This document shows, piece by piece, positions 3,416 to 62,625 of a DNA stretch of 64,000 bases. The notes under the pieces were generated by a model that did no database searches, was not told where the DNA came from, and was given only the letters and a program-made list of their open reading frames with translations. The translations under genes and the position numbers were made by a program. Source of the DNA: Myxococcota bacterium (GTDB lineage Bacteria; Myxococcota_A; UBA796; CAJQPC01); assembly GCA_036229005.1 (NCBI GenBank), contig JAZAMN010000011.1, positions 1-64,000 on the forward strand, in the 5' to 3' direction. Positions within the stretch are counted from its first letter, which is position 1. Every line of letters begins with the position of its first letter.

Positions 3416-3904
3416 TCAGCGATCCTCGGGGGGGAGGCCCGCCCACAGCCCAGCCAGGGCCTTGCGCTCCAGGCGCTCGACCCGCTCGGACTCACCGGGG
3501 GTGTTGAAGGCCACCGCGTTGAACACGAAGGTCTCCTCGGCCTGGGCGATGACCTTGCCGCCCACCTTGGCCCGGACCTTCATCACGGCGGACTCCTCGC
3601 GGAGGGCGATGAACTGGGAGTGCAGCTCGACGGCGTCGCCGGGGCGCACGAACTTCCGGAACTTCACCTTGTCGGCCATGGTGAAGATGGGGAAGGGCCA
3701 GTCCCCGCGCTGCTTGCGCACGGTGTACCCGATGAGCTTGCCGGAGAGCTGGGCCATGGACTCGAGCAGGATCACGCCGGGCACCACCGGGAAGCCCGGG
3801 AAGTGGTCCGCGAAGAAGTGCTCCGAGAGCGTGAAGGCCTTGACCCCCACGGCGCTCTCGCCAATCACCATCTCGTCGATGCGGTCGACCAGGAGCCAGC
3901 GCAT
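3416..3904 (-). CDS. fabZ: 3-hydroxyacyl-ACP dehydratase, FabZ/FabA hotdog family
   Basis: LLVDRI, FFADHFPGFPVVPGVILLESMAQ, KVKFRKFVRPGD. Confidence 0.85.
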   Translation of the reverse strand: MRWLLVDRIDEMVIGESAVGVKAFTLSEHFFADHFPGFPVVPGVILLESMAQLSGKLIGYTVRKQRGDWPFPIFTMADKVKFRKFVRPGDAVELHSQFIALREESAVMKVRAKVGGKVIAQAEETFVFNAVAFNTPGESERVERLERKALAGLWAGLPPEDR

Positions 3905-4734
3905 CAGTCCAGCACCGCTTCGAGGCAGTCCACGGCGACCAGCTCACGCGCACCGCCGTCACACTGCTTGTACCGGTGCACCTCGAAGAGGTGGTAGCCC
4001 GAGTACGGCGCGTTGAAGTTGTGCAGCCACTGGCGGCGCTCCCCGACAACGGGGCCCGCGGCGACGTTGGCCTCCTTGGGGCGCCCGTCGAACCAGGTGT
4101 CCATGGTGTAGGTGCAGCTCGCGTCGCCGTCCTCGGCGGCCACCGACCAGGCCCCGACGGGCACGGCCTCGCCCAGGGAGGCCAGCTTGTTGACCTCGCC
4201 GCGCTCCAGCTCCTTGTTGGCCTTCTTCCAGTCCTTGGCGGCGTCCTCGACAAAGAGGGTGGCCTCGCAGACCTCGAAGGAGAAGGGCTGCCCCTCGGGG
4301 AAGGGCAGGTACTCGACGTAAGGCGTCGCGTTCAGGGGCTTCTCGACCTCCTTCCCATCCGCCATGGTCACGAGCATCTCGGACACGCGCACCGCGCAGG
4401 TCCGCTTGTTGGGCTCCAGGTAGAGCCGCTTGAGGTTGTCCTGCCCCGCGTCCACGGCGGCCTTGCGCTCGCCGGTCGCGACCTCTGTCAGGACCAGGTC
4501 GGAGTCCCGCTTCTCCCCCTTCATGGCGCGGCGGGTGCTGCCCCCGTCCACGTAGACCGCGCTGTTGTCGGCGTTCACGCGGATGCGGAAGTCGTGGACC
4601 CCCTTGGAGCCCTCCACCTTGATCCAGTCCCCGGCGAGCTGATCCAGAGCGATCTCCGGGCAGGGGTCTTCCAACACAAACTCAGGCTCTTCGGGCGCGC
4701 CGCTGCAGGCGAGCGACAAGATCAACATCAGCAT
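3904..4734 (-). CDS. Hypothetical lipoprotein
   Basis: MLMLILSLAC lipobox, GAGG upstream, its stop overlaps the fabZ ATG, GC-biased third codon positions. Confidence 0.8.
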   Translation of the reverse strand: MLMLILSLACSGAPEEPEFVLEDPCPEIALDQLAGDWIKVEGSKGVHDFRIRVNADNSAVYVDGGSTRRAMKGEKRDSDLVLTEVATGERKAAVDAGQDNLKRLYLEPNKRTCAVRVSEMLVTMADGKEVEKPLNATPYVEYLPFPEGQPFSFEVCEATLFVEDAAKDWKKANKELERGEVNKLASLGEAVPVGAWSVAAEDGDASCTYTMDTWFDGRPKEANVAAGPVVGERRQWLHNFNAPYSGYHLFEVHRYKQCDGGARELVAVDCLEAVLD

Positions 4735-4828
4735 GGGGTACCTCGGGCCGATGAGGGTAGCGCCGATTCAGGCCCGCGGGCAAAGTCGCTGCAAGGCCGT
4801 GACAAAGTCGAGCGGGAAGGAGGCTGCC

Positions 4829-5686
4829 GTGCTGCTCTGGATCTGTGGGTTCACCGCCGCGATCGCGGGCCCCCTGGACCCCGTGACACCTTCGTCCGCC
4901 GGCGAGGTCACCCTGTCGCTGACCGGCTCTCTGCGGAGCTTTGAGCAGGTGAGCAGCGCCCACCACGATCCCCAGGTGCTACCGGCAAGCTGGGGGGTCG
5001 CGGTCCTGGCGCTGGATGCCCAGGCCGGCCTGCGGGAGCACCTGGCCGTGGCCGCTGGGCTGTCCTGGTGGGACGCCACCCCAAAGGTCCTGGACGCAGG
5101 CACCTGCGCGGACTGGGCGGCCTGCGAGGCGGTGAAGGCCCCAGGCGATCTGACCCTGTCCCTGCGCAGCCTCTGGCGCCTGGGGGCCTGGCGCGTCGAG
5201 GGGCGCGCGGGGGTGGTGAGCGGGGCTCTGTACCAGCGCCACCTGGAGTCGCTGGGCGCGCCCGGCAACGGCAACCTGGACCTGCACGCGGGCGGCGCGC
5301 TGAGCAGGCAGGGCACCCTGGGGCCGCTCTCTTGGCGCACCCAGGTGGCCGCCGGCGGGAGCCTCGCGCCAGGGCGGCCCCCGAACACCCTGGAGGCCAG
5401 CGCGCAGCTCTCCGTGGGCACCCCGGTGCTGCAGCTTGGACTGGGGTGGATGACCCACCAGAGTGTGCACGGCGTCGACTTCGACGTGGCGGTGGCCGAC
5501 CCCAGCGACCCCGCGCGCTTCACCGATCTGGACCACGACCTCCAGCGCCTGGACGTGGCGCTGGGCGTGGCGGTGGGGCCGCCCGGCTGGTGGCTGGTGG
5601 CCGGAGGGTGGATGCACACGCAAGTGGACAACGGCCCGGCGGACCTGCGGGGAGCGGAGCTGGGCGTGCAGTGGCAGCGGGACTAG
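4829..5686 (+). CDS. Hypothetical exported protein, possible outer-membrane beta-barrel
   Basis: GTG at 4829 after AGGAGG (4818-4823), short hydrophobic N-terminus, alternating amphipathic strand-like segments, C-terminus AELGVQWQRD. Confidence 0.6.
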   Translation: MLLWICGFTAAIAGPLDPVTPSSAGEVTLSLTGSLRSFEQVSSAHHDPQVLPASWGVAVLALDAQAGLREHLAVAAGLSWWDATPKVLDAGTCADWAACEAVKAPGDLTLSLRSLWRLGAWRVEGRAGVVSGALYQRHLESLGAPGNGNLDLHAGGALSRQGTLGPLSWRTQVAAGGSLAPGRPPNTLEASAQLSVGTPVLQLGLGWMTHQSVHGVDFDVAVADPSDPARFTDLDHDLQRLDVALGVAVGPPGWWLVAGGWMHTQVDNGPADLRGAELGVQWQRD

Positions 5687-5688
5687 CG

Positions 5689-5952: not shown

Positions 5953-6939
5953 CTACTCTCCCCAACCCGCAAGCTCCGTCCACTCCTGCGTGTCCAGGTC
6001 CAGCTCCCAGACGTCGTTGACAAAGTTCGGCGCGTTCTCGTCGTCTGCGGGGTCCCCGCCCATGATGGTCAGGTGGCGTCCGTCGGGGCTCGCGCTGACC
6101 TGGGCGTCGCGACCGATGGGCGCGGGCTCCGAGTCGTAGGCCGCCCAGGTCGCGGTGCTGGGGTCGAAGGCCCACAGGACGGTGTCCTCGCCTTGGCCAG
6201 CCCAGATCCAGAGGTGATCCGCATACCAATGCACCGTGTGTGAGGCCCGGACTCCGGGGGTCTCCCCGACCACAAAGACCTCCTGCCAGATGGCCTTGCC
6301 AGGCTCCGAGCGCGTATCCACGGTCCACAGCCAGTCGTGGCGGGTGTCGTCGGCGTCGATGCCGCCCATCAGCCAGACCCTGCCGTCATCGGCCAGCGCC
6401 ATGCCCGAGCGGGTGAGCGCGCCGGGGCCGCCGACCTGCTCCAGCTCCTCCCAGGTCTCGGTGTCCGGGTCGAAGGCCCAGAGATCCGAGCGGGTGAGCG
6501 TCTCGTCCCCGTCGTCGAAGCGCCCGCCGTAGACCAGCATGCGGCTGCCATCCCAGACCGCGTCGGCCTTGTAGCGGCCCAGCGGTCCCCCCTCGCCCAA
6601 GGTGGTCCAGGTGTCGGTGCTCAGGTCCCAGCGCTCGAGGGAGGCGGACTCGGTCGAGCTGTTGCCCTCGCTGCCGCCAAAGACCCAGGCGATGTCCGTA
6701 CCGGGCTCCTGGACCAGGGTGGACCGGAAGATGTCGCGGGGCGGGTCCCCCATCCTCTCCCAGGCCTGATCGGAGAAGCGCCAGGCGTCCCGGCGCTTGC
6801 CCCCCGAGCCGGAGCCTCCGGTGATGTAGAGGTTCTCCCCCGCCGCATCGAAGGTCCCCACGTGGGAGTAGCGGTAGCGGGGGACGGAGGCGACGGGGTC
6901 ACCGCCGCCGTCGGTGCAGGCCAGCAGGATCATGAGCAT
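5953..6939 (-). CDS. Kelch-repeat beta-propeller lipoprotein
   Basis: MLMILLAC lipobox. Repeated Kelch pattern (LYITGG, WVFGG, LVYGG, WLMGG, TIMGG), each followed by W...W motifs. Confidence 0.85.
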   Translation of the reverse strand: MLMILLACTDGGGDPVASVPRYRYSHVGTFDAAGENLYITGGSGSGGKRRDAWRFSDQAWERMGDPPRDIFRSTLVQEPGTDIAWVFGGSEGNSSTESASLERWDLSTDTWTTLGEGGPLGRYKADAVWDGSRMLVYGGRFDDGDETLTRSDLWAFDPDTETWEELEQVGGPGALTRSGMALADDGRVWLMGGIDADDTRHDWLWTVDTRSEPGKAIWQEVFVVGETPGVRASHTVHWYADHLWIWAGQGEDTVLWAFDPSTATWAAYDSEPAPIGRDAQVSASPDGRHLTIMGGDPADDENAPNFVNDVWELDLDTQEWTELAGWGE

Positions 6940-7022: not shown

Positions 7023-8102
7023 GTGCTGCTCATCCTGCTCTCCGGCTGCTGGAAGACCGACGTCGCCGTCGACACCACCATCATCCCCTTCACCAACGCC
7101 ACGACCAACACCTCGGGCTGGGTGGAGCGGGTGGAGACCCAGCTCTCCTGCCCCGATGGCAACCCGGCCAGCTTCTACGTGGTCTACCCCCAGACCCAGA
7201 GCGGCCCGCAGCCCGCGGCCGTGGTCCTGCACAGCGCGGCCTTCGACTACATCATCGCGCCCGACGCCGGGAACCCGCTGCTGGGGCAGAACTACGCGGG
7301 CCTGAGCGCCGACGGCTACACCCGCCTGGAGGCCGACTGGGGCGAGGCCAAGACCTTCGAGACCCTGGGCCTCATCTCCCGCATCGACGCCAGCGAGGAC
7401 AACCTGGGCACCCTGCCCGCGGCCCTGCTCGACGCCGGCTACGTGGGAATCTACCCCACCAACTGCTGGGGCGACCTGTGGCACAACGAGACCCCCAGCG
7501 CGGGCCTCCCCAACCTGTCCAACAACACCGAGCTGGACTTCTTCCAGCGCAACGGCGGGGCCCTGGCCCTGGACGCCTGGGAGTTCGCCACCGGCGACCA
7601 GCTCTTTGAGTCCGGCGCGCTGATCGACACCTCCGAGACCCTGCTGGTGGGCCTGGGCGACGGCGCCCGCGGCGCCACCGAGCTGCTGCTCCGCGACGAT
7701 GTGAACCCCTCCGCCATCCTCATCGACTCCCCCATCGACGAGCTGGAGGACTGGGCCACATCGACCGGAGTCCAGGCCGGCCTGGAGCGCATCTACCTGG
7801 GCTCCACCGAAGAGGGCTACAACTGGAACCAGTGGACCCTGGCCCGCATGGCCTCGGCCGCCGTCGACAGCCTGCCCGACGTCCCCATCGCCCTGGTGCA
7901 CTCCAGCATCGACCCCCAGGTCCCCGCCGGCAACAGCGAGCGCCTGCTGGAGAAGTTCGACGAGACCGACCCGCTGCGCTGCGAGATCGACACCACCGCC
8001 AACAAGCACATCCAGACCAACGGCGACGCCCTGCTGGCCCGCGACCTGGTGGCGTGGCTTGCGGGGGGGGACCTACCGGCCCAGTGTGAAGCCAGCGAGT
8101 GA
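7023..8102 (+). CDS. Lipoprotein with alpha/beta-hydrolase-like fold (atypical nucleophile elbow GLGDG)
   Basis: MLLILLSGC, AGGAG RBS, PAAVVLHS, LLVGLGDGARGA, PIALVHSSIDPQVP, distal His (NKHIQ). Confidence 0.6.
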   Translation: MLLILLSGCWKTDVAVDTTIIPFTNATTNTSGWVERVETQLSCPDGNPASFYVVYPQTQSGPQPAAVVLHSAAFDYIIAPDAGNPLLGQNYAGLSADGYTRLEADWGEAKTFETLGLISRIDASEDNLGTLPAALLDAGYVGIYPTNCWGDLWHNETPSAGLPNLSNNTELDFFQRNGGALALDAWEFATGDQLFESGALIDTSETLLVGLGDGARGATELLLRDDVNPSAILIDSPIDELEDWATSTGVQAGLERIYLGSTEEGYNWNQWTLARMASAAVDSLPDVPIALVHSSIDPQVPAGNSERLLEKFDETDPLRCEIDTTANKHIQTNGDALLARDLVAWLAGGDLPAQCEASE

Positions 8103-8131
8103 GTTCGCCTGCGGCCGGTTAGCCTGCTCCC

Positions 8132-9073
8132 ATGCTGCTTCTCCTGCTCGCCTGCAAGGCCCCCGCCCCCGAAGACACCGCCCCCTGGGAGCCCTCCTGG
8201 GACCAGCCCGACTGGGACACGCCCGGCGCCCGCCGCTGGGCCAACACCGGCGGCTGGTACCCCAACGACCCCGATGAACTGGACGCCGAGGTCCAGGCCC
8301 TGCTTGAGGCCGGCGGGGGAACGCCCCAGGCCACCCAGTCCGTGCTCGTCCCCCACGCGCGCTTCCTGAGCGCCGGTGCCGTCGCGGGGCACGCCTATTC
8401 GCGGGTGGAGATCCCCGAGCGCGTCATCCTGCTGGTCCCCAACCACGGCTCGGGCGCCCAGCTCGCCATCTGGGACGAGGGCCCCTGGCTGGTGCCCGGC
8501 CACTCCCTGCAGAAGGACGACCAGCTCACCGATCGCCTGCGCGAGCTGCTCCCCGAGCTGGAGAACGACCCAGTGTCCTTCTCGCGCCACCCGCCCGAGA
8601 TGCAGCTCCCCTTCCTGCAGTACCTGAACCCCGACGTGAAGATCGCGGCCATCGCCATCCGGGACACGCCCAGCGAGCACTTCGGGGAGGGTGTCCTCGA
8701 CCCGGCCTTCACGCCTCAAGAGGTGGATCGCTGGGGGACCGCGCTCTCGACGGTGCTCCAAGAGTTCCCGAACACCCTGCTCCTCACCTCGACTGACCTG
8801 ACCCACTGGGAAGACACCGAGACGACCGCGACCCAGTGCGAGGCCTTGATGGGCTACATCGGCACCAACGACGTGCCTGGCCTGCACGCCTACGTGGTCA
8901 CCGGCGAGATCAGCATCGGCGGCGAGATCCCCACCGCCATCATGATGAGCGCCATGGGCAAGCTGGGCTACGCCGAGGCCTCCTGGAGCCACTGGGGCGA
9001 CTCCTTCCACGTGAACGAGGACCCCTCCGACGTCATCGCCTACCCCTCCCTGGGCACCTGGAGCGCGCAGTGA
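8132..9073 (+). CDS. MEMO1 / AmmeMemoRadiSam protein B-like protein with lipoprotein signal
   Basis: GGWYPNDPDEL, VLVPHA, VAGHAY, VILLVPNH, EMQLPFLQYL, STDLTHW are MEMO-family motifs. N-terminus MLLLLLAC. Confidence 0.8.
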   Translation: MLLLLLACKAPAPEDTAPWEPSWDQPDWDTPGARRWANTGGWYPNDPDELDAEVQALLEAGGGTPQATQSVLVPHARFLSAGAVAGHAYSRVEIPERVILLVPNHGSGAQLAIWDEGPWLVPGHSLQKDDQLTDRLRELLPELENDPVSFSRHPPEMQLPFLQYLNPDVKIAAIAIRDTPSEHFGEGVLDPAFTPQEVDRWGTALSTVLQEFPNTLLLTSTDLTHWEDTETTATQCEALMGYIGTNDVPGLHAYVVTGEISIGGEIPTAIMMSAMGKLGYAEASWSHWGDSFHVNEDPSDVIAYPSLGTWSAQ

Positions 9074-9093
9074 CCCCCGCAATGATCCCCGCG

Positions 9094-10335
9094 ATGCTCC
9101 TGGCACTGGCCTGCAGCCCCCCGGAAGACTGGGAGGCCGTCGACCCGCCCTTCTACAGCTACGACGACAGCAAGACCCCGCTGGTCGAGCTGCCCGCCGA
9201 CGAGAGCACCTGGGAGGACCTGGAGTTCCCCCTGGAGCAGAGCGGCGGAGACAACGGCGACACCGGCATCACCTACAGCTTCGCCCTGGCGGCCTACTAC
9301 ATCCTGGGCGTCCAGAACGTCGGCATCGGCCAGCCCTTCGGCTACACCCTGGAGCCCACCACGGGCGTCTGGGAGGACGACGACTCCTGGGGCCGCCAGG
9401 TCATGGCGACCATCACGCTCGTGCGCGCCTCCAACGTCACCGGCCGCCCCGAGTTCGAGCTGGGCGCCCGCATCGCCATGCGCCAGCTCCTGGAGGACGC
9501 CGAGGAGCAGGAGGACGGCTCATTGAAGCTCTCCAGCATCGGCCCCACCGCCCTGATGGTCATGGCCATGACCGAGCACGCCGCCCTCACCGGCAGCACC
9601 GAGTGGGAGCCCGCCCTGGAGGGCTTCGGCGCCTACATCCTGAGCGCCCAGAACCCAGACGGCTCCTGGTCCGAGGGCAGCCGCCTGACCTGGCAGCAGC
9701 TCCACAAGGCGCTGTGGGAGCTCTACGTCCACACCGGCGAGGTCGTCTACCTGGACGCCCTGGAGGCCACCGGCAAGTGGCACAGCGACAACCGCGATCT
9801 CACCGGCGACGCCGAGCCCTTCGAGTACCCCTACCTCTACGGCCTCTGGGCCGCGGAGCCCCTGCTGGGCCTCTACCGCGAGCGCCCCGCCGACTGGATC
9901 CCCGAGCTGGTGTTCTCCGTGGGCGACGACGTGATCGGCGACCAGTGGACCCCCGACACCGTCACCGACGAGACCGCGCAGTACATGGGCGGCTACTGGG
10001 CCAACCCGCCCAACGAGGACGGCCCCCCCAACTGGAACCACACCATCAAGCTCGAGGCGGTCATCGACTGCTGGCGCATGGCGGATGAGGTCGGGGACGA
10101 GGAGCGGGCTGCGCTCTACCGTCGCTCCGCTCTCATCGGCACGGCCCACCTCCAGGACTGGCAGTTCCGCCAATCCGACATCACCGGCTGGCCCAGCGAG
10201 GACATCGCGCTCGGCGGCATGCCCCTCTACGTGGACGACCCCAGCATCCGCATCGACATCCCCGCCCACGGCGGCGTCGCGATGATGAAGGTCGCCAAGT
10301 ACCTGGAGCTGGAGGCGTGGCCGGGGGGCTACTGA
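9094..10335 (+). CDS. Lipoprotein, predicted helical (alpha/alpha)-barrel-like protein
   Basis: MLLALAC (alternative starts 9082 and 9070). SAQNPDGSW QW-like motif and repeated helical hairpin pattern (ALWELY..TGEVVYLDA). IRIDIPAH near the C-terminus. Confidence 0.6.
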   Translation: MLLALACSPPEDWEAVDPPFYSYDDSKTPLVELPADESTWEDLEFPLEQSGGDNGDTGITYSFALAAYYILGVQNVGIGQPFGYTLEPTTGVWEDDDSWGRQVMATITLVRASNVTGRPEFELGARIAMRQLLEDAEEQEDGSLKLSSIGPTALMVMAMTEHAALTGSTEWEPALEGFGAYILSAQNPDGSWSEGSRLTWQQLHKALWELYVHTGEVVYLDALEATGKWHSDNRDLTGDAEPFEYPYLYGLWAAEPLLGLYRERPADWIPELVFSVGDDVIGDQWTPDTVTDETAQYMGGYWANPPNEDGPPNWNHTIKLEAVIDCWRMADEVGDEERAALYRRSALIGTAHLQDWQFRQSDITGWPSEDIALGGMPLYVDDPSIRIDIPAHGGVAMMKVAKYLELEAWPGGY

Positions 10336-11054
10336 CCCGTCAGCCACCCCTCCATGTCCACAGCGAGCTGCTCATTCACCCCAAAGATCTGCGTCCCGTG
10401 GCTCCCCGGGTCGTAGATCACCACCGGCCAGTCCGGGTTCACCGCCTCGAAGTCGTCGGCGTTGGCGGCCTCGCTCGTGGGGAAGCCCACCCAACCCGGC
10501 AGCTCCGCGATGGCGCTCAGGTCATGGTTGGCCTGGGTGTAGTTGCCCGGCGACAGGAACATGAAGCCGTCCAGCGCCGGCCAGGCCTCGCTGCCCTCCA
10601 GGCTCGCGTAGTCCAGCACGCTGGTCGAGCCGTTGCTGGCGCCCACCATCAGCAGCTTGTCGAAGCCGTCCGCCTGGGCCCGCAGCACGCAGGCCTCCAG
10701 GTCGTAGGCGCCCTTGACCGTGTTGTAGGCGTCCGCGGCCATGCCCTCGCTGTCCCCCGCCCCGCGCCGGTCCAGCACCATCAGCGCCAGCCCCGACTCG
10801 TGCAGCGACTCCAGAAAATCCGTCGGCCAGTCCGTCCGGTTGAAGCCCGCCGAAGGGTTCATGTGCGCGAACACGACCAGGGTGACCTCGCTTGAGGACT
10901 GGCCGTAGTAGTCCGTGGTGATCTGGACCTCGTCCCGGGTGGTGAGGGTCAGCGTCTGCATCGCCACGGGACCGCTCACCTCCTGGGAATCCTGGGTGTC
11001 CTGAACCTCTGTGGACCCGCCGGCGCAGGCGAGGACAAACCAAAGCAGACCCAT
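10329..11054 (-). CDS. Alpha/beta hydrolase lipoprotein
   Basis: MGLLWFVLAC, LDRRGAGDS, VGASNG nucleophile elbow, HGT catalytic His. Paralog of 11057..11779. Confidence 0.85.
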   Translation of the reverse strand: MGLLWFVLACAGGSTEVQDTQDSQEVSGPVAMQTLTLTTRDEVQITTDYYGQSSSEVTLVVFAHMNPSAGFNRTDWPTDFLESLHESGLALMVLDRRGAGDSEGMAADAYNTVKGAYDLEACVLRAQADGFDKLLMVGASNGSTSVLDYASLEGSEAWPALDGFMFLSPGNYTQANHDLSAIAELPGWVGFPTSEAANADDFEAVNPDWPVVIYDPGSHGTQIFGVNEQLAVDMEGWLTGQ

Positions 11055-11056
11055 GA

Positions 11057-11779
11057 TCAACCCTCCTGCCCGATGAGCCAGGCCGTGAGCTCGGGCGCGC
11101 AGTCGGGCGCCTCCGCGAACATGCGCGTCCCGTGCGCCCCGGGATCGTAGAGGGTGAAGCTCCACTCTCCGGGATCCACCTCCTGCCAGGGCGCGTTGTT
11201 GTCGGCCTCGCTGGCGGGGTATCCGAACCAGCCCGGGAGCGCGGGCATGTCGGCGATGGCGTGGTTGTTGGTGGTCGCTCCCACGGCGGAGAGCATCGCG
11301 AAGGCGCTGGGCGCGGTCCAGCCCTCGGTCCCGGCCAGGGCGGCGTAGTCCAGCACGCTGGTGGTCCCGTTGCTGGCGCCCACCAGCATCAGCTCGGAGA
11401 AGCCGTCCACGCCCAGCACGGCGGCCTCGATGTCGTAGGCGCCCTTGACGGTCTCGAAGGCCTCGCTGGCGACGCCGGAGCTGTCCCCGGCCCCGCGGCG
11501 GTCGATGACCATGACGTGGAAGTCGGCGTCGACCAGGGGCTGGAGCACCTCGCCGGGCCAGTTGTCGCGGTTCCAGGAGCCGGTGGGGTCCATGTGCACG
11601 AACACCACCAGCGGCCGGTCGTCCCCGGAGGCCGTGTAGTGATCGGCCACGATGTCCACGCCGTCGCGGGTGGTCAGGGTGACGATCTCGCCGCCCTCCG
11701 GCTTGGGCTCGGCGGTGTAGGGGGGCGCGGTCTCTTGGATCTCGGCCTTGGTGCAGGCCAGCAGGAGCATGAGTGTCAT
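11057..11779 (-). CDS. Alpha/beta hydrolase lipoprotein (tandem paralog)
   Basis: MTLMLLLAC, IDRRGAGDS, TVKGAYD, VGASNG, HGTRMF. Confidence 0.85.
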   Translation of the reverse strand: MTLMLLLACTKAEIQETAPPYTAEPKPEGGEIVTLTTRDGVDIVADHYTASGDDRPLVVFVHMDPTGSWNRDNWPGEVLQPLVDADFHVMVIDRRGAGDSSGVASEAFETVKGAYDIEAAVLGVDGFSELMLVGASNGTTSVLDYAALAGTEGWTAPSAFAMLSAVGATTNNHAIADMPALPGWFGYPASEADNNAPWQEVDPGEWSFTLYDPGAHGTRMFAEAPDCAPELTAWLIGQEG

Positions 11780-11788
11780 GGGCAGAGC

Positions 11789-12403
11789 CTAATCCCCGCG
11801 CTGCGCCTCTGCGCCCACGACCAGGATGCCCTCGACCGTGAACACCCGCTCATCGCCGCTGTTCCACATCAGGTCGGCGCCCGTGCCGGTGCAGATCAGG
11901 TCCAGGTGCAGCTCGGAGCGGCCCATCGCCGACATCCCCCGCGCCCCGGAGAGCGCCTCCAGGCTGACCACGTCGATGTGGCCGCGGCAGGGGATCGCGG
12001 GGCTGCCCAGACGATCCGCGCGGCGCCGATCCCGCTGGCGCCAGGTGGCCGTGAAGCCCTGGCTGTGGCGCCCCAGCGCGCCCTGATCCCCCGTCTCCAG
12101 GAAGTCGCCGTCCAGGCGCAGGGTGAAGCTGCCCTCCAGGGGGGTGGGCCGCCACGGGTAGGTGCCCTCGGCGAGCCCGTGGGTCCCGCGCACCTGCAGG
12201 CCGTTGATGGCCGCCTCGCCCTCCAGCGGGCCGGTGAAGATGCGCTGGGGGCCGCCGTCCTCGCGCAGGCGCAGGTCGGTGTGCACGGAGACGTCCAGGG
12301 GCTGGGAGTCCCCCACGAAGAAGTCCAGCAGCAAGAGCATGGGCACCAGGGCCCCGAGCAGGAGCCACAGCAGGTGCGCGCTTGAGAGGGGACCCCTGGC
12401 CAT
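11789..12403 (-). CDS. Hypothetical membrane-anchored protein
   Basis: N-terminal hydrophobic segment LLWLLLGALVPMLLLLDFF. TATACT-N6-ATG at the start. Fills the gap between supported genes. Confidence 0.6.
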   Translation of the reverse strand: MARGPLSSAHLLWLLLGALVPMLLLLDFFVGDSQPLDVSVHTDLRLREDGGPQRIFTGPLEGEAAINGLQVRGTHGLAEGTYPWRPTPLEGSFTLRLDGDFLETGDQGALGRHSQGFTATWRQRDRRRADRLGSPAIPCRGHIDVVSLEALSGARGMSAMGRSELHLDLICTGTGADLMWNSGDERVFTVEGILVVGAEAQRGD

Positions 12404-31967: not shown

Positions 31968-32015
31968 TCCGGGGTGGCCCGGAGAGGCTGAAACGTGCGG
32001 TGAACCCGGATTTCC

Positions 32016-32069
32016 TGTTGCCGACCAAGGGACATCCCGTATAGGGTACTGTCTACTGGGAGGTGACAG
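32016..32069 (+). promoter_or_regulatory. Putative promoter/operator and RBS block, copy 2
   Basis: TTGCCG-N18-TAGGGT. AGGGACATCCCGTATAGGGT is identical to copy 1. GTCTACTGGGAGG RBS. Confidence 0.65.
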
Positions 32070-33611: not shown

Positions 33612-33626
33612 GCCCTCGGAATCGCA

Positions 33627-35306
<1,680 letters not shown>

Positions 35307-35315
35307 GGGAGGGAC

Positions 35316-39943: not shown

Positions 39944-40143
39944 GGCACTCCGGGGGGCTGGCCCCCCGAGAGAATGAGCTTTGATTTCTACGAAATCAGG
40001 ACCGGCCGCTCCTTTGACTGCAAAGGAGACCGGCGGCCGGTCCCGGACTGCGTGAGCAGGCCGCCAGGGGGTGCCCTCAAGGGCACTCCGGGGGGCGGGC
40101 CCCCCGAAAAGAATGAGCTTTGATTTCTACGAAATCAAAGCTC
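39944..40143. repeat. Two 55-56 bp direct repeats with internal hairpins flanking a long GC stem-loop
   Basis: GGCACTCCGGGGGGC(T/G)GGCCCCCCGA..GAATGAGCTTTGATTTCTACGAAATCA at 39944-39998 and 40082-40137. Hairpin at 39999-40043. Palindrome with perfect 13-bp arms at 40115-40143. Confidence 0.85.
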
Positions 40144-41442
40144 CGCGGTGGTGATGTTCCAAGTCAGGATGTCCTGCTCCAGGCGGCCGAGCAGCTCCTT
40201 GTCGAAGGTGCCGCGCTCGGCGTTCCAGGTGTAGCGCTTGAGCTCGCGCTGGGTGTCCGCGGCCACGTAGAGCTCGGGGACGCCGTTGCCGTCCAGGTCG
40301 GCGGCGTAGGCGCTGTGCTCGAAGCCGCCGCTGGCGGAGTCGAAGCGGGTCACGGTCCACTCGGTGGCGCCGTCGGCGGGGGGCTCCATCAGGTACAGAC
40401 CCGAGGTCATGGCCGCGGCGACCAGCTCGACCTGGCCGTCGCCGTCAAAGTCGCCGGGGACCAGGAAGCGGGTCTGGCGGTCCTCGATGGTGCCGACGTC
40501 GGTGCGGGTGAAGCTGCCGTCCTTGTTGTAGCTGTACTGGGCCACGGTGACGGGCTTGAGGGTCTTGCGCTTGTCGTTGGGGTCGATCTCGGCCTCGAGC
40601 ACGGAGAACAGCTCGGTCTTGCCGTCGCCGTCCAGGTCACTGGCCAGGATCTCCTTGGCGTGGGTGCCGTGCTGCTCTTCGACCCAGGTGCGCTTCCAGG
40701 TGCTGCCGTCCCACTTGTACATGACCACGCCGCCCGCCTGGCTCTTTCCAGCCTGGTTGCGGTCGGAGGGGGTGGCGAAGAACTCGAGCACGCCGTCGCC
40801 GTCGATGTCTCCCAGCTCGATCTCGTGGACGAAGGTGTCGGCCTTCTTGTCCATCTGGGTGACCTTGTGCGCGCCGCCCTCGCCCTTTCCGGGCTCGACC
40901 ACGGCCACAACACCGGAGTCGTGGGTCGCGATGATGTAGTCGTCGGCGCCATCGCCGTTCACGTCACCGATCTCGATGTCGCGCAGGCGCTGGAACTTGC
41001 CGCCCCAGTTCTCCTCCCAGAGGGTCTCCGAGGACCACTTGCCGTCGGCGAAGCTCCACTTCTTGAGCTTGGCGCCCTCGGCCCCGATGGTCAGCAGGCT
41101 GCCGTCGTCGAGCTGGATAGCCTTGTGGAAGACGTTGGACTCCTCGTCCTCCAGGCGGGTCATCTTCCAGCCGCTGCCGGTGTCCCGCCAGATGTCCATG
41201 CGCGCGGGGCCGGGCAGAGGCTTGCCGGCGGCGTCCTTGTAGAACACGGACTGGGTCAGGAGCAGGGCCTTGTAGGGGCCGCCCTCCAGGGGCTGCTGGA
41301 CGGCCTTGGGCACGCCAGCGTCGGCGGGCTTGTCCGCAGCGGCCTCGGTCTTGGCGGGCTCGGACGGCTTCTCGGGGGTCTCACCGCCGCTGCAGGCGAC
41401 CAGGCCCAGGGCCAACAGGACGGACAGGCTGAGGGGCTTCAT
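40135..41442 (-). CDS. FG-GAP/VCBS-repeat beta-propeller lipoprotein
   Basis: MKPLSLSVLLALGLVAC. Repeated GDVNGDGADD, GDIDGDGVLE, SDLDGDGKTE, GDFDGDGQVE, ADLDGNGVPE. ATGA overlap. Confidence 0.85.
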   Translation of the reverse strand: MKPLSLSVLLALGLVACSGGETPEKPSEPAKTEAAADKPADAGVPKAVQQPLEGGPYKALLLTQSVFYKDAAGKPLPGPARMDIWRDTGSGWKMTRLEDEESNVFHKAIQLDDGSLLTIGAEGAKLKKWSFADGKWSSETLWEENWGGKFQRLRDIEIGDVNGDGADDYIIATHDSGVVAVVEPGKGEGGAHKVTQMDKKADTFVHEIELGDIDGDGVLEFFATPSDRNQAGKSQAGGVVMYKWDGSTWKRTWVEEQHGTHAKEILASDLDGDGKTELFSVLEAEIDPNDKRKTLKPVTVAQYSYNKDGSFTRTDVGTIEDRQTRFLVPGDFDGDGQVELVAAAMTSGLYLMEPPADGATEWTVTRFDSASGGFEHSAYAADLDGNGVPELYVAADTQRELKRYTWNAERGTFDKELLGRLEQDILTWNITTAEL

Positions 41443-52027: not shown

Positions 52028-52741
52028 TTGGCCCACCTCCTCCCCCTTCTGTTGGCGTGCACCTCTGCACCCGAGCTCACAGTCGAGGACACCTGGGCGC
52101 CGACCGGCGACGCCCCCATGGACCCTGCGCTGCTGCTTGAAGCCGCCCAGCTCCCGATGCGTTGGGCGCTGCTGATGGACTCCCAAGCGCAAGCTGGCCG
52201 CGACGCGTGCCCTCAGGTCGAACGCACCCTCGAAGGCCACGTCCAGCTTGAGGGCGGCTGCACGGACGCGCAGGGCGTGGAGTGGGTCGGCACGGCCACC
52301 CTCTGGACGGAAGACGGCCAGCAGCACTACGGCGCAGCCGACTTCGGCACCTCCGAGCGCCAGTATTGGGGCAGCATCATGGCCGGTCAGGCGCTGCACG
52401 CCACCGGACGCGCGAGCTTCGGGGGCGGCCTGGAGATCCGCTACGACGACCACAGCGTGGGCGACTGGCCGGCCTGGCAGGCCATCGACCAGGGCGCCTC
52501 CGCGAGCACGGCCATCCAGGGCCAACTGGACGTCCAGACCCCCACCCTTCGCAGCACTCTCAGCCTGGATGGCACCCTGATCCGCAGCGAGTGGGCCAGA
52601 TGCGAGACCGGCCCCGAGTCCGGGAGCCTCTCTCTCACGGGCCACCCCGACGGCGCCCTGACCTTCATCTGGTACCCCGACACCTGCGGGGAGTGCGTGG
52701 ACTGGCTGCACGGGGGAGAGCAGGGCCAGATCTGCGAGTAG
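52028..52741 (+). CDS. Hypothetical lipoprotein, paralog of 55421..56164
   Basis: TTG start MAHLLPLLLAC. Shares AAQLPM, CP, GxCTDxxGxxWxGTA, DFG, LxLxGH and CxxCxDW...CE with 55421..56164. Confidence 0.75.
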   Translation: MAHLLPLLLACTSAPELTVEDTWAPTGDAPMDPALLLEAAQLPMRWALLMDSQAQAGRDACPQVERTLEGHVQLEGGCTDAQGVEWVGTATLWTEDGQQHYGAADFGTSERQYWGSIMAGQALHATGRASFGGGLEIRYDDHSVGDWPAWQAIDQGASASTAIQGQLDVQTPTLRSTLSLDGTLIRSEWARCETGPESGSLSLTGHPDGALTFIWYPDTCGECVDWLHGGEQGQICE

Positions 52742-55420: not shown

Positions 55421-56164
55421 CTACTCGCAGGCCGTCCCGGTCGCGCCGTCAAAGCTCCAGTCCGCGCAGCCGTCGCAGCCCGCGCCGTCCCAGGTGTAGA
55501 CCAGGTCCCCGGCCGAGTGGCCGGACAGGGTCAGGGTGCCGGCGTCGAACTCGTCGCTGCAGGTGCCCGCGTTGCTGATCGAGCCGCTCGCGGTCAACAC
55601 CACGCTGGCGCCGTCCTGCGCGTAGGTCATCAGGCCCGAGAAGTTCGAGCTGCCCTCGCCGTTGAAGAGCCCGTTGCCGTAGCCCTGCCAGTCATCGACG
55701 CCGTAGTCCGCGTAGGTCAGGGTGAGCTGCTGGCCCTCGTAGTCCAGGTCCACGGCCAGGTCGCTGGTCAGGGCCGCGCCGATGTCGATGTTCCCGGTCA
55801 CGGTGACCTCGCTGTTGCCGAAGTCTGTCATCGCGATGCTGCCAGCCGAGTCGCCCGTCTCGGTGAGCACAGCGGTGCCGGTCCAAGCGGTCCCCTCGGT
55901 ATCCGTGCAGTCCCCGCTCAAGGTGGTCACGGTCTCGCTGGTGGCCACCACGCTGGGGCAGTCGGTGGCATCGCCCGCGGCCATGAAGCCCACGACGAAG
56001 GCATAGGCCATCGGCAGCTGAGCGGCGGTGTAGGCCAGCTCCGGGTCCAGCTCCGCCTCTCCGCCCGAGGCGGTGTCCGCAGTGCCCGAGGTGTCGTCGA
56101 TCTTCACGCCGGTGCAGGCCAGCATCAGCAGGAAGGAGAGGACGGTCGTGGTGCGCAGGGTCAT
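55421..56164 (-). CDS. Hypothetical lipoprotein, paralog of 52028..52741
   Basis: GGAGGT RBS, LLMLAC lipobox, Cys pattern and motifs shared with 52028..52741. Confidence 0.85.
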   Translation of the reverse strand: MTLRTTTVLSFLLMLACTGVKIDDTSGTADTASGGEAELDPELAYTAAQLPMAYAFVVGFMAAGDATDCPSVVATSETVTTLSGDCTDTEGTAWTGTAVLTETGDSAGSIAMTDFGNSEVTVTGNIDIGAALTSDLAVDLDYEGQQLTLTYADYGVDDWQGYGNGLFNGEGSSNFSGLMTYAQDGASVVLTASGSISNAGTCSDEFDAGTLTLSGHSAGDLVYTWDGAGCDGCADWSFDGATGTACE

Positions 56165-57636: not shown

Positions 57637-59568
57637 ATGGTGCTCCTGGCTCTGATCCCACTGCTCCCCACCGCCCAGGCCGCCGTGGCCCCCGTTCAGC
57701 AGGCCTGGATCCGCCTCCCCGACGAGGACACCCGGGCGCAAGCCGAGTCGATGGGCGCGAACTTCGCCGAGGGCGTGGACGGGCCCTGGGTGCTCATGGA
57801 CGCCCGCGCTGACGACTGGCCGGCCCTGCAGGCGCGCTTCGAGACGCGCGCAGCGCCCGCCACCATCGCGCCCCCCAGCCCCGAGGGCTACCGCAGCGCC
57901 GAGGAGATCAACGCGGCCCTGCGGACGATGGCCGAGGACCCCGCCGCCACCCTGCTGGACCTGGGCGAGAGCGGGGAGGGCCGCCCCATCCTGGGCCTGT
58001 CCATCGGCCCCCAGGACGCCCCCGCATTCCGCATCCTGGGCGCGCACCACGGCGACGAGGCCCCCTCCGCCGAGCTGGCCCTGGCCGTCGCGGAGGCCGT
58101 GCTCGGGGGAGAGGGCGCGTGGGCTGGGCTCAGCGAGTCCCTGCACCTGGTCGTGGTGCCCGTGGTCAACCCGGACGGCCTGGAAGCCGGCAGCCGCTAC
58201 AACGCCAGCGGCGTCGATCTGAACCGGAACTACGACTACGAGTGGGGCGAGGGGGCCTTCCGCGGGCCGGCCCCCTTCTCGGAGCCCGAGACCCGGGCCG
58301 TACGCACCCTGAGCCTCTACCACCCCTTCCACGCCGGCCTGAGCCTGCACACCGGCGCGCTGAACCTGGGCTGGCCCTGGAACCACACCACCGAGCTCTC
58401 CCCCGACGAGGACCGGATGGCCGCACTGGGCGAGGCCTACGCGCGCTACTGCACCCACCCCGACTTCTACACGACCAACGGCGCGGCCTGGTACACCACC
58501 ACCGGGGACACCAACGACTGGTCGCTGGGCCGCCAGGGCACCCTGGACCTCACCCTCGAGGCCTGGGAGGACAAGCAGCCCGCCGCCAGCCAGCTCGACA
58601 CGGTCCTGAACACCCACCTGCGGGCCATCGCCGAGTTGCTGAGCACCCCCGTGCCGCTGCGCGTCCAGGTGGTCGACGCCCAGACCGGTCAGCCCCTGCA
58701 GGCCGAGCTCTCCGTCGGGGAGCGCGCCAGCCCCTTCTGGACGGGCCCGGACGGTGACGGCAGCCACATCCTGGAGGTCGGGATCTACACCCTGGAGACC
58801 CGGGCCCCCGGCTACACCACCGACACCCGCGAGCTGCGCCTGCCCGCCGAGGAGATCGTCAGCCTGGAGGTCGCGCTGGAGCCTGCCGATCTGTTGGAGC
58901 AGCGCCTGGAGCCCACCTTGCTGCCCTGCTGCGAGCCCACGGAGCTGCAGATCCTCGACGCCTCCGGTGCCCCCATCGACAGCCCCCCTGCCCTGCTGAC
59001 CCTCTCCCGCCCGGGCTTCGAGTCCAAGCGCCTCGCGCTGCGGGGGGACAGCTACCCCATCGACCCCAGCTACTACGCGCCCGGCCCGTGGACCGTGGAG
59101 AGCGAGCAGGGTGTGCTGCCCAACGCGCTGCTGGTGGCCTCGCAGGGGGGGCTGATCCGGCTGGAGGAGCTGCAGGTGGATGCTCAGACGGTGGACCTCA
59201 CCGCCTCGGGCTTGGGACCCAGCCCCTCCCTCTTCCTGCTCTCTGGGCCCACCCGAGGACTGACTCGGCTGGAGCTGCAGGAGCACAGCGACACCCACCT
59301 GCGCGCGGCCCTCCCCGAGGGGCTCTCGGGAACCGTGGACCTGCTGATCGTGTCCAGAGGAGAGCAGCTCGTCATCGCCGACCTGCTGGGAGAGCCCGAG
59401 CTGGATCCTGGAACCCCCGCTGAGCCTTTGGACACCGCGCCGCCTTGGCAGGGGCAACAGCTCGTCGGTTACGGCGGCTGCAGCTCCGCTCCCCGCCCTG
59501 TCCCTGGGAGCCTGTGGCTCTTGCTGGCCACCCCCCTGCTGCTCTGGAGAGCCCGCCGATGCGCATGA
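57637..59568 (+). CDS. M14 zinc carboxypeptidase with carboxypeptidase regulatory-like domain and MYXO-CTERM-like tail
   Basis: LGESGEGRPI, AHHGDE, PVVNPDG, RYNASGVDLNRNY, PFSEPETRAV, SLHT. Tail GGCSSA...LWLLLATPLLLWRARR. Confidence 0.88.
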   Translation: MVLLALIPLLPTAQAAVAPVQQAWIRLPDEDTRAQAESMGANFAEGVDGPWVLMDARADDWPALQARFETRAAPATIAPPSPEGYRSAEEINAALRTMAEDPAATLLDLGESGEGRPILGLSIGPQDAPAFRILGAHHGDEAPSAELALAVAEAVLGGEGAWAGLSESLHLVVVPVVNPDGLEAGSRYNASGVDLNRNYDYEWGEGAFRGPAPFSEPETRAVRTLSLYHPFHAGLSLHTGALNLGWPWNHTTELSPDEDRMAALGEAYARYCTHPDFYTTNGAAWYTTTGDTNDWSLGRQGTLDLTLEAWEDKQPAASQLDTVLNTHLRAIAELLSTPVPLRVQVVDAQTGQPLQAELSVGERASPFWTGPDGDGSHILEVGIYTLETRAPGYTTDTRELRLPAEEIVSLEVALEPADLLEQRLEPTLLPCCEPTELQILDASGAPIDSPPALLTLSRPGFESKRLALRGDSYPIDPSYYAPGPWTVESEQGVLPNALLVASQGGLIRLEELQVDAQTVDLTASGLGPSPSLFLLSGPTRGLTRLELQEHSDTHLRAALPEGLSGTVDLLIVSRGEQLVIADLLGEPELDPGTPAEPLDTAPPWQGQQLVGYGGCSSAPRPVPGSLWLLLATPLLLWRARRCA

Positions 59569-60779: not shown

Positions 60780-60802
60780 ACGGTGACCCCCCAGGGTGGG
60801 GA

Positions 60803-60859
60803 GAAATCACCAAAATATTCGTGATTTCAATAACTTGAAGACTTGGCACAACTCCTGCT
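60803..60859 (+). promoter_or_regulatory. Sigma-54 type promoter with upstream IHF-like site and inverted repeat
   Basis: TGGCAC-AACTC-CTGCT at 60844-60859 (GG-N10-GC). TTTCAATAACTTG at 60825-60837 resembles WATCAANNNNTTR. GAAATCAC-N10-GTGATTTC at 60803-60828. AT-rich island. Confidence 0.7.
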
Positions 60860-60892
60860 TTGCACCTGGGTGCACACAGTCAGGAGGACCCC

Positions 60893-61642
60893 ATGTCCAC
60901 ACAAACCGCCCGTACGCCCACGGGTCGCCGAGAGGAGCTGATCTTGGCCCACTACCCGATGGTTCGGAAGGTGGCCTACCGGATGGTCAGTCGCTTCCCT
61001 TCTTGTGTCGAGGCTGAGGACCTCGTCACCATCGGCACGCTGGGCTTGATCGACGCCGTCGATCGCTTCGAGGAGACGCGCTCCATCAGCTTCTCGGCCT
61101 ACGCCCGCATCCGGGTACAGGGCGCCATCCTGGACGAGCTCCGCAAGGAGGACTGGATCCCCCGCAGCGTCCGCAATCGCCACCACAAGATCCAGGCGAC
61201 CCGCGATGACCTGCGCGAGAAGCTGGGCCGCGACCCCAGCCACAGCGAGCTGGCCGCCGCGATGGAGGTCACCACCGAGCGCCTGAGCGAGATGATCCAG
61301 AACTCCACCCTGCGCTCGCTGGTCTCCATGGAGGACAGCACCGGCGCGGGCGAGGAGCCCATCCACTCCACCCTCCAGTCCGACGACGAGTCCCCCTGGG
61401 ACGAGGCGGTGCAGCACGATGTCTCCGCCCGGGTGCGGGAAGCGCTGCAGTCCCTGCCGGACCGGGAGCGTCAGATCGTGGACCTGTACTACTACCGGGA
61501 TCTGTCCTTCAAGGAGATCGGCGAGCTGCTGGGGGTCACCGAGTCCCGCATCTCCCAGCTCCACAGCCGCCTGCGCAACCGCCTGATGAGCCGCCTGCAG
61601 GACCTGATGGACGACCCCATGGAGCTGCTGCGCGCCGCCTGA
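60893..61642 (+). CDS. fliA: FliA/WhiG family RNA polymerase sigma factor (sigma-28)
   Basis: AGGAGG RBS, EDLVTIGTLGLIDAVDRF, YARIRVQGAILDELRKEDWIPRSVR, LYYYRDLSFKEIGELLGVTESRISQLHS. Confidence 0.9.
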   Translation: MSTQTARTPTGRREELILAHYPMVRKVAYRMVSRFPSCVEAEDLVTIGTLGLIDAVDRFEETRSISFSAYARIRVQGAILDELRKEDWIPRSVRNRHHKIQATRDDLREKLGRDPSHSELAAAMEVTTERLSEMIQNSTLRSLVSMEDSTGAGEEPIHSTLQSDDESPWDEAVQHDVSARVREALQSLPDRERQIVDLYYYRDLSFKEIGELLGVTESRISQLHSRLRNRLMSRLQDLMDDPMELLRAA

Positions 61643-61668
61643 GGCCGCAGGGCCTGTGACTCGGAGGC

Positions 61669-62625
61669 CTAGAGCGGCGCGATGCTCCAGTAGCGGTCAT
61701 TGAGCTCCCGCATGCCCATGCGGGAGCTCACGTTGAGCGCCAGGAAGCCGTCGATCTTGCTGGGGAGCCTGGGGACCACCAAGAGGTCCACGTTCTTGAA
61801 GGTCACCGTGCCCACCTGGATGCTGTCCACGTGCACCAGCTTGCCCTCGAGCGTGCCCACGCCGGTCAGCATGCTCAGGTGCGGCATCACCTCGGTCACG
61901 CCCTCGGCGCCCTCCATCGCTGCGGCGTCGACGTAGGTCCAGGCCGCAGAGGTGTCCAGGCCCAGCCAGAGCTCCTTGCCCGCGAGCTGGGTCTCGAAGC
62001 GCCAGTACCCGTCGGAGGGGTCCTGACGGACCTTGCCCTCCTCTTTGAGCTGGACGCCCTCACACTCCGGGTGCTGCCCTTCGAGCGTGGCGATCGCGGT
62101 GCCGGCCGTGCCCCGCAGCTCGGGACTGACGAACCAGAGCTGCCCCCAGGTCACCATCGCGTCGCAGGGCTTCTGAAGCTCCTCCTGCAGCTCGGCCAGC
62201 GCCCGGAGCTGCCGGTGCCCCTTGGAGCCCCTGGCGGCGACCTGCTGGCGGCGCAGGGTCAGCGCCTCGTCCTGTCGGCCGGCGAGGGCGAGCTCGGCCA
62301 CGAGCTGGTCCGCGTAAGGGGAGTTGGGCTTCCCATCGCTCAGCGCCTGGGCGAGCTCGATGGCCTTGGCGTGGTCCGCGAGCTGAATCGCCAGGTCCAG
62401 GTGCTTGCTCATCAGCGTCTTGTTCTCGCCGCAGGCCGCGTGGAAGTCGCTGTAGACCTGCATGGCCGCGGGCCCATCACCCGCCTCTGCGAGGGTCGTC
62501 GCCAAGGCGTTGACAGAGTCCGTCTTGCAAGGGGCGGCCGCCACCGACTTGCGGTGGTTGTCGATGGCCGTGGCGTAGACCCCGTAGGGGCTCGGCTCGC
62601 AAGCGCTCAGCAGGAGCAACAACAT
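61669..62625 (-). CDS. Lipoprotein with TPR-like helices and retropepsin-like aspartyl protease domain
   Basis: GGAGGT RBS, MLLLLLSAC, LGLDTSAAWT (DTG variant), VDSIQVG, IDGFLAL (GxLG variant). Confidence 0.7.
   Translation of the reverse strand: MLLLLLSACEPSPYGVYATAIDNHRKSVAAAPCKTDSVNALATTLAEAGDGPAAMQVYSDFHAACGENKTLMSKHLDLAIQLADHAKAIELAQALSDGKPNSPYADQLVAELALAGRQDEALTLRRQQVAARGSKGHRQLRALAELQEELQKPCDAMVTWGQLWFVSPELRGTAGTAIATLEGQHPECEGVQLKEEGKVRQDPSDGYWRFETQLAGKELWLGLDTSAAWTYVDAAAMEGAEGVTEVMPHLSMLTGVGTLEGKLVHVDSIQVGTVTFKNVDLLVVPRLPSKIDGFLALNVSSRMGMRELNDRYWSIAPL

Follow-up and report, generated by a model that had tools for sequence, protein, structure and literature searches.

Ultra-short, uncharged lipoprotein-type signals throughout the genome of an uncultured member of the Myxococcota

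Introduction

The canonical signal of the Sec/signal peptidase II (SPase II) pathway is 16-26 residues long, has a positively charged N-terminus and ends in the consensus [LV][ASTVI][GAS]C, according to the accessible text of PMC8689077. Here we analyze lipoprotein-like N-termini in a stretch of 64,000 nucleotides (nt) from Myxococcota bacterium (GCA_036229005.1, contig JAZAMN010000011.1, positions 1-64,000), hereafter called the window. A first-pass annotation of this DNA had pointed to about 16 lipoproteins with ultra-short signals and to three similarly shortened signals of non-lipoproteins, and had proposed either an adapted Sec/Lgt/LspA pathway or a different route of acylation and export. 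Canonical signals (PMC8689077) and the short form have in common a hydrophobic stretch, A/G/S at position -1, Cys at +1 and a disordered tether, with Lgt, LspA, Lnt and LolA encoded in the genome. The short form differs in its leader of 6-11 residues, in the lack of a positive n-region and in a Leu at -2 (69%), which lies outside [ASTVI]. Our analysis confirms that these N-termini are real and genome-wide, far beyond the window.

A second point of comparison is offered by engineered poly-Leu signals, with which Hikita and Mizushima reportedly found in 1992 that hydrophobicity can replace the N-terminal positive charge; this compensation is said to need a longer hydrophobic stretch. The natural core described here is short (~5-8 residues) and is used by hundreds of proteins. 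Defective-looking signals also recall the prlA (SecY) and prlD (SecA) suppressors of E. coli. SecY I187 is a pore-ring residue, and prlA sites cluster at the ring (accessible parts of PMC2171872 and PMC3101351). A373 of SecA, which adjoins L372, is a prlD site where bulkier residues give Prl phenotypes, that is, relaxed signal checking (bioRxiv 10.1101/2021.08.31.458331, accessible part). As for start sites, the accessible text of PMC3160421 describes a TANNNT motif ~12 nt before the start codon as a mark of leaderless genes in high-GC bacteria. The same arrangement recurs here and accounts for some of the starts (48/497), not for the signal itself. A literature search that left most subscription journals outside its scope returned no paper on natural ultra-short uncharged lipoprotein signals, and the trait is not mentioned in the accessible part of a secretome survey that includes a UBA796 genome (PMC11495043).

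Results and Discussion

Abundance and properties of the short signals

The source genome (G000 in our numbering, the window being G000:C11:1-64000) comprises 6.4 Mb with 70% GC and is 94% complete; runs from the same sample are labelled marine metagenome. Database homologs bearing the labels Myxococcota, Deltaproteobacteria, Sandaracinaceae and Bradymonadia, together with Polyangiales/Myxococcales among the top named SecY matches, point to a Myxococcota-like lineage; most other matches of the SecY scan were distant Alphaproteobacteria. Genes were called with a purpose-written hexamer-model caller (5282 genes, 90% coding), on which all genome-wide counts depend. A hydrophobic lipobox lies near the start of 728 genes. 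A start-site model trained on 998 non-lipoprotein genes placed the Cys at or before residue 12 in 497 of them (peak at 8-10) and at residues 15-35 in 173, with the remaining 58 at 13-14 or beyond 35. Lys or Arg occurs in 3 of the 497 short signals versus 150 of the 173 long ones, a contrast inflated for Cys 8-9 by a lipobox filter that barred charged residues from the six positions preceding the Cys and required A/G/S at -1. In the subset with Cys at 10-12, where 2-4 positions are unfiltered, K/R is found in only 1 of 227 signals. The Cys stands at residues 8-10 in 369 of the 728 lipobox genes, well short of the textbook length of 16-26 residues. Twin-arginine (Tat) motifs are no match either, as at most 3 of the 497 short signals hold any K or R. 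A looser filter yielded 621 short-signal genes.

Chance does not produce this pattern. A short uncharged lipobox, read from the first possible start codon, is present in 306 of 5218 called genes and in 11 of 18,395 shadow open reading frames, an excess of about 100-fold. A histogram of the first Cys, drawn without the hydrophobicity filter, peaks at residues 8-11 with 15-22 per 1000 called genes, against a flat 6-9 in the shadow frames, and rises abruptly between residue 7 (21 genes) and residue 8 (101 genes). The unfiltered peak of first Cys residues that follow A/G/S also falls at residues 8-11. Within the short signals the -1 residue is A, G or S in 82, 13 and 3% of cases, and the mean hydropathy of the last seven residues is 2.77 versus 2.41 in canonical signals, both values being partly fixed by the filter. 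Leu makes up a fraction of 0.53 versus 0.28 in canonical signals, and its share at -2 drops to 32% in long signals.

Short N-termini in the window and their start sites

The features of the window are as follows; residue numbers give the position of the lipobox Cys.

4705-4734, minus strand: short signal MLMLILSLA-C (Cys10) of a 276-residue protein (gene 3904-4734), no Pfam family, no upstream start
4829-5686, plus strand: non-lipoprotein with an uncharged signal of ~13 residues, GTG start; the G206 ortholog begins MLLLCASLAQA
6916-6939, minus strand: short signal MLMILLA-C (Cys8), Kelch beta-propeller protein, no upstream start
7023-7049, plus strand: short signal MLLILLSG-C (Cys9), GTG start, GGAG upstream
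8120-8125, plus strand: TAGCCT, a TANNNT -10-like box 12 nt before the 8132 ATG, suggesting a leaderless-type start
8132-8155, plus strand: short signal MLLLLLA-C (Cys8), Memo-like protein
9094-9114, plus strand: short signal MLLALA-C (Cys7), start uncertain
11025-11054, minus strand: short signal MGLLWFVLA-C (Cys10), alpha/beta hydrolase
11753-11779, minus strand: short signal MTLMLLLA-C (Cys9), alpha/beta hydrolase of a family that mixes short and canonical signals
11786-11791, minus strand: TAGGCT, a TANNNT box 12 nt before the 11779 ATG, probably a leaderless-type start
27186-27986, plus strand: non-lipoprotein with an uncharged signal of ~14 residues, GTG start
29137-29163, plus strand: short signal MFMVLLAA-C (Cys9), NF033662 acidic double-disulfide repeats, GGAGG upstream, stop 3 nt upstream
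30684-30713, plus strand: short signal [10 protein letters not shown] (Cys10), NF033662 repeats, ATGA overlap
32070-32099, plus strand: short signal [10 protein letters not shown] (Cys10), NF033662 repeats, GGAGG upstream, stop 3 nt upstream
33627-33656, plus strand: short signal MLLLLSLLA-C (Cys10), NF033662 repeats
35316-35339, plus strand: short signal MIWLLLA-C (Cys8), NF033662 repeats
36491-36517, plus strand: short signal MKILLLLA-C (Cys9, one Lys), GTG start in a GTGA overlap, NF033662 repeats
37387-37410, plus strand: short signal MIWLLLA-C (Cys8), NF033662 repeats, ATGA overlap
40135-41442, minus strand: comparator with canonical lipoprotein signal MKPL... (Cys17), FG-GAP repeats
52028-52060, plus strand: short signal MAHLLPLLLA-C (Cys11), TTG start; 33% identical paralog of the canonical-signal lipoprotein 56164
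55421-56164, minus strand: comparator with canonical lipoprotein signal MTLRTT... (Cys17)
57637-59568, plus strand: M14 carboxypeptidase with an uncharged signal of ~15 residues ending in AQA, TATAGA 12 nt upstream
62599-62625, minus strand: short signal MLLLLLSA-C (Cys9), aspartic-protease-domain protein, GGAGG upstream

All 16 lipoprotein-like N-termini of the first-pass annotation translate as it had reported, with the Cys at residue 7-11, and so do the three non-lipoprotein signals at 4829, 27186 and 57637. Its statement that almost all lack a basic n-region was borne out as well: 14 of the 16 are free of basic residues, and the other two have one Lys (36491) and one His (52028). Several starts had been described as impossible to extend, and for 11 of the 16 the stretch from the preceding in-frame stop to the listed start contains no ATG, GTG or TTG (4734, 6939, 7023, 8132, 11779, 29137, 32070, 33627, 35316, 52028 and 62625). 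The close in-frame stops are indeed there, 3-15 nt upstream of seven starts (8132, 11779, 29137, 32070, 33627, 35316 and 52028); for 8132 and 11779 this stop is the TAG of the TAGCCT and the TAGGCT box, respectively. Starts in NTGA overlaps were found at 30684, 36491 and 37387. The start at 9094 is as uncertain as had been assumed, the alternatives at 9082 and 9070 giving Cys11 and Cys15, also without K/R. GTG or TTG serves as start codon in five cases (7023, 36491, 52028, 4829 and 27186). Canonical lipoprotein signals also occur in the window, at 41442, 54940, 56164 and 59559.

Genome-wide, the Cys remains at or before residue 13 in 320 of the 728 lipobox genes even when the most upstream ATG, GTG or TTG is taken, and in 112 an in-frame stop limits it to residue 14 or less for any start codon. 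Upstream of the 320 forced short starts a purine peak lies at -11 to -7, and 44 of them carry a -10-like box exactly at -12. TANNNT at -12 precedes 48 of 497 short versus 1 of 150 canonical signals (P = 3e-5). Since 107 of 998 non-lipoprotein genes also carry it, the box is not enriched at short signals; canonical lipoproteins are the ones that lack it. That ~11% of non-lipoprotein genes have TANNNT exactly 12 nt before the start, an arrangement exemplified in the window at 8120, 11791 and 57625, points to a class of leaderless genes.

Orthologs in other genomes agree with the short starts. Those of 4734, 4829, 6939, 7023 and 11054 in G206, G101 or G014 also begin short and uncharged (six stretches, three genomes): the 4734 protein has a short-start ortholog in G206 and G101, and the 7023 orthologs in all three genomes each begin after a nearby in-frame stop. 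For relatives of the 11779 hydrolase, short starts are also called in the database gene annotations of many other assemblies. Translation almost certainly begins at the short ATG or GTG, which comes close to being shown.

In the window, 8 of 26 proteins scanned against Pfam received a name, and no lipoprotein-attachment model matched any of the 26; an Rfam scan of the window gave 0 matches. A search of the ESM Atlas with the 4734 protein returned leads that were all below 0.9. Memo-like proteins are a cytoplasmic family, and the Memo-like (AmmeMemoRadiSam protein B) domain on a lipoprotein signal at 8132-9073 is an unusual combination. Seven paralogous short-signal lipoproteins with 4-12 NF033662 acidic double-disulfide repeats each form a tandem array at 29137-38760.

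Export of the short-signal proteins

The mature parts of these proteins look extracytoplasmic. When the lipobox Cys is excluded and proteins with at least one further Cys are counted, the number of cysteines is even in 335 of 438 short-signal proteins (76%), in 99 of 130 canonical lipoproteins and in 820 of 1811 signal-less soluble proteins (45%); among the forced-short genes alone it is even in 202 of 271. Even parity of the remaining cysteines argues for disulfide bonds, with the lipobox Cys left unpaired. Canonical lipoproteins agree with the short-signal proteins in mature composition and in the acidic Pro/Thr tether; in both, a Pro/Asp/Thr-rich tether follows the lipobox Cys. Seven of the window proteins are disulfide-repeat proteins (NF033662).

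Non-lipoproteins are affected too. Directly at their start, 224 have a hydrophobic uncharged run, and 115 of these lack an early Cys and show a signal peptidase I (SPase I)-like site by residue 17; the parity bias is weaker in this SPase I-type set (57% of 81). K/R-free signals were found in 7 of 10 members of the TolC-like OEP family, one of the seven itself a weak Pfam match (12 genes were read; one mis-called start and one weak match were dropped). The same holds for 5 of 9 TonB-receptor genes, one through a start re-read by eye (10 genes were read and one mis-called gene was dropped). Proteins of both families must reach the outer membrane, so their K/R-free signals support export. One OEP-family lipoprotein has a short signal with Cys10; LolA and BamD retain K/R signals. 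Cys parity, composition, disulfide-repeat domains and outer-membrane families together indicate that the short-signal proteins are very probably exported, with the mature part outside the cytoplasm.

BamD was dropped as a test lipoprotein because it has no lipobox in most members of the order. The BamD of the source genome (TIGR03302, G000:C7:59545-60300) carries an SPase I-type signal instead, as do most members of the order and class that were read; the lipobox is kept in G061, G221, G166 and two outgroups.

Exchange with canonical signals and spread across the order

Short and canonical signals occur within one family. The 11779 hydrolase has 122 database relatives, 120 of which were compared. 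Close relatives have uncharged leaders with Cys at 7-11, others begin with MR and have Cys at 12-14, and distant ones have leaders of 15-24 that contain K/R; all use the same lipobox Cys, whether short or canonical. A quick, unrooted tree was made of the 108 relatives with a readable lipobox (12 were dropped). On it, 13 changes are required to account for the short label, and well-supported branches force 4 of these; the label is clustered (none of 500 shuffles was as low). A clade of 38 rows with good support contains no short form. From the wider spread of the canonical form, the direction appears to be loss of the n-region. The short form is best read as a variant of the normal lipoprotein signal, and the separate acylation or export route put forward in the first-pass annotation is not needed, given that both forms swap within one family.

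For the wider distribution, 44 genomes of the order and 257 from outside it were surveyed (301 in total). Matches of the strict pattern M-(hydrophobic)5-A-C number 56 in the source genome, 90 in G206, 42 in G101 and 9-35 in five genomes of another family. Of the 44 order genomes, 11 have 9 or more matches; none of the 257 others exceeds 4, and the reversed pattern gave 0-2. As a second measure, the fraction of lipobox-type matches that have a nearby upstream ATG was determined in 56 of the 301 genomes, chosen after the strict-pattern result was seen. It has a median of 0.32 (0.08-0.63) in the order and exceeds 0.25 in 27 of 37 genomes; outside, the median is 0.14 (0.06-0.23) and none of 19 exceeds 0.25. 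Within the order the trait varies by degree, and the source genus shows it in extreme form. Genome-wide counts and survey agree with the earlier view of a lineage-wide, mostly uncharged signal type that extends to non-lipoproteins.

Lipoprotein and export machinery

Family searches detected secY, secA, ffh, ftsY, yidC, lnt, lolA, SPase I, two deformylases, four lgt and two lspA genes, as well as several S26 peptidases; secD, secF and secE were recognized by motif or position only. Loss of the signal recognition particle (SRP) as a cause is ruled out for the source genome, Ffh and FtsY both being present above curated cut-offs. A motif scan for the SRP RNA had no match and was uninformative. 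FtsY (G000:C26:30495-31568) opens with a hydrophobic, anchor-like segment and not with a long acidic domain. Loss of peptide deformylase, which would leave the formyl group in place, is likewise ruled out by two intact-looking genes. The same applies to an expansion of lgt or lspA, for outgroups without the trait have similar copy numbers (2-6 lgt and 2-3 lspA).

LspA retains its Asp motifs, which we take to be the catalytic residues, and no order-specific LspA column was flagged in the alignment. No order-specific changes were seen by eye in Lgt. The main Lgt, encoded in an lspA-lgt operon, keeps the equivalents of R143, R239 and R246 and has H103Y and N146C, variants that are described in the accessible text of PMC13251419. 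The notion of an adapted Sec/Lgt/LspA pathway thus gained no support in its Lgt/LspA part, where copy numbers resemble those of outgroups, no order-specific LspA column stands out and the essential residues of the main Lgt or described variants are kept; its Sec part survives as leads only (SecY I187A/S and SecA L372Y). Two divergent Lgt paralogs (G000:C21:84306-85220 and C52:307944-308822) fall below the TIGR00544 cut-off and share a GRLGCxxxHDH motif that also occurs in outgroup G007. YidC (G000:C8:30232 region) has order-specific changes in the cytoplasmic hairpin and transmembrane regions, at 10 of 110 conserved columns, which is about baseline.

Proposed pathway and alternatives

Our interpretation, which is probably correct, is that these are Sec/SPase II signals reduced to a Met, a Leu-rich core and the lipobox, with the basic n-region gone, and that the normal pathway would handle them. 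The proteins would cross the inner membrane via SecYEG, with SecA or SRP, both present, for targeting; export itself is very likely. Lgt would then, with good probability, add diacylglycerol to the lipobox Cys. LspA would probably cut off the leader of 6-11 residues, after which Lnt and Lol would act as usual. The raised leucine content may make up for the missing charge and length, with about seven residues ahead of the Cys as the lower limit. As a helix, a seven-residue leader cannot span the bilayer, which counts against this reading where Lgt and LspA would have to engage it. The leader would have to lie in an extended form or be pulled into the membrane, which is plausible as it lacks a side-chain charge to hold it at the cytoplasmic face. 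A further point against is that the support for expression, start use, lipidation and cleavage is indirect throughout; the lack of K/R at Cys 8-9 is also inflated by the filter, as noted above. SPase I-type substrates would have shrunk likewise, with canonical signals still used alongside. The short form may be regarded as a modified Sec/SPase II signal, with an SPase I-type counterpart, which departs from the known n-region and length and behaves like such a signal by every indirect test.

Several other explanations have to be considered. The leader might be lipidated by Lgt and stay uncleaved as a second anchor, leaving a diacylated protein in the inner membrane. Seven residues may be too short for the signal-helix site of LspA, and no order-specific LspA column would explain an adaptation. 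This outcome is nonetheless unlikely, because the -1 residue is A/G/S as in canonical signals (though the filter demanded it), the OEP-family lipoprotein with Cys10 should need cleavage to reach the outer membrane, and short and canonical forms interchange within one family. It is also improbable that a dedicated route is at work, either YidC insertion or a divergent Lgt paralog, possibly with lipidation before translocation. The four lgt genes, two of them below the family cut-off, and the 10 order-switched columns of YidC would fit such a route. However, trait-free outgroups have as many lgt and lspA genes, the rate in YidC is near the ribosomal-protein baseline, and the 115 equally short non-lipoproteins, outer-membrane barrels included, point to a general Sec step. 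Export without lipidation is still harder to defend. LxA before the Cys also satisfies the -3/-1 rule of SPase I, and several S26 peptidases are encoded, so that SPase I might cut after LLA and leave a free N-terminal Cys, or the leader might be a cytoplasmic membrane tether. Yet family members of either form retain the Cys, the even parity of the other cysteines leaves it unpaired, the tether behind it is canonical-like, and disulfide repeats misfit a cytoplasmic location. Finally, true starts further upstream, perhaps at non-standard codons and giving normal signals, can practically be dismissed: a few genes such as 9094 are ambiguous and the start picker mis-called some starts in both directions, but in-frame stops set a limit in 112 genes irrespective of the codon, Shine-Dalgarno and -10 signals are located at the short starts, database calls in many other assemblies agree, and shadow frames hold so few such lipoboxes.

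Candidate changes in SecY and SecA

If the normal Sec pathway handles the short signals, the enabling change might be a relaxed, prl-like proofreading. This is our favored guess and a tentative one, with SecY I187A/S and SecA L372Y as candidate residues. At the position of E. coli I187, SecY has Ala/Ser in 23 of 23 order members versus Ile in 12 of 15 outgroups; F192T/S/A, E110Q and A79V are further changes in the order. SecA has Tyr in 22 of 22 order members versus L/M in 7 of 7 comparison sequences at the position of B. subtilis L352, presumably E. coli L372, judged by the offset from 2VDA. The known prlD sites Y134, L187, A373 and H484 are unchanged in the SecA of the source genome. The likeness to the E. 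coli suppressors (PMC2171872, PMC3101351 and bioRxiv 10.1101/2021.08.31.458331, in their accessible parts) lies in the changed pore-ring I187, the changed site next to SecA A373 and the defective-looking signals. As a difference, the changes here are natural, fixed across the order, also present outside it and known from sequence alone. The accessible parts of these three sources do not name I187A/S and L372Y as prl alleles.

One scenario, which we consider possible but not the likelier outcome, is that the order fixed a naturally relaxed, prl-like Sec translocase, that some lineages then cut most signals to a seven-residue uncharged Leu core, and that Lgt and LspA act on half-length leaders; the step at Cys8 would be the physical minimum. 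A number of observations weigh against it. The SecY motif was found in 34 of 44 order genomes and also in 12 of 257 others, by a pattern that misses AGY serines and with 2 of the 12 perhaps not secY; the SecA motif was found in 12 of 20 order genomes and 7 of 131 outside. T, S or A occupies SecY 187 in ~16 of 80 named loci, mostly from Alphaproteobacteria, in a set biased to query likeness. Among 25 genomes checked, 15 with T/S/A at I187 have 0-1 strict-pattern matches, which rules out the I187 change as a sufficient cause. Order-switched columns amount to 20 of 248 (8.1%) in SecY and 14 of 425 (3.3%) in SecA. With 3/71, 9/108 and 3/34 (4.2-8.8%) in ribosomal proteins as a baseline, excess lineage change in SecY, SecA or YidC is ruled out. 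Every aligned order member has both changes, yet the trait share ranges from 0.08 to 0.63; the SecY and SecA changes would thus be at most permissive. The comparison concerns a single clade and hence one event. SecY I187A/S and SecA L372Y are therefore leads only, and what speaks for them is solely where the changes lie.

One bin of 11.8 Mb, labelled Enterobacterales, holds a SecY that shares 71% identity with the query and has the GNGASLIIT motif of the order. The strict short pattern has no match in this bin, and the SecY probably stems from a misbinned contig.

Conclusions

Short uncharged signals are carried by about a tenth of the genes (497/5282) of a genome that still uses canonical ones, an indication that its export apparatus tolerates leaders at odds with the usual rules. 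They offer hundreds of natural cases for old questions about the role of n-region charge, the minimum length of a signal and proofreading by SecY and SecA. If rule-based predictors miss short signals, counts of secreted and surface proteins in these uncultured bacteria would be too low.

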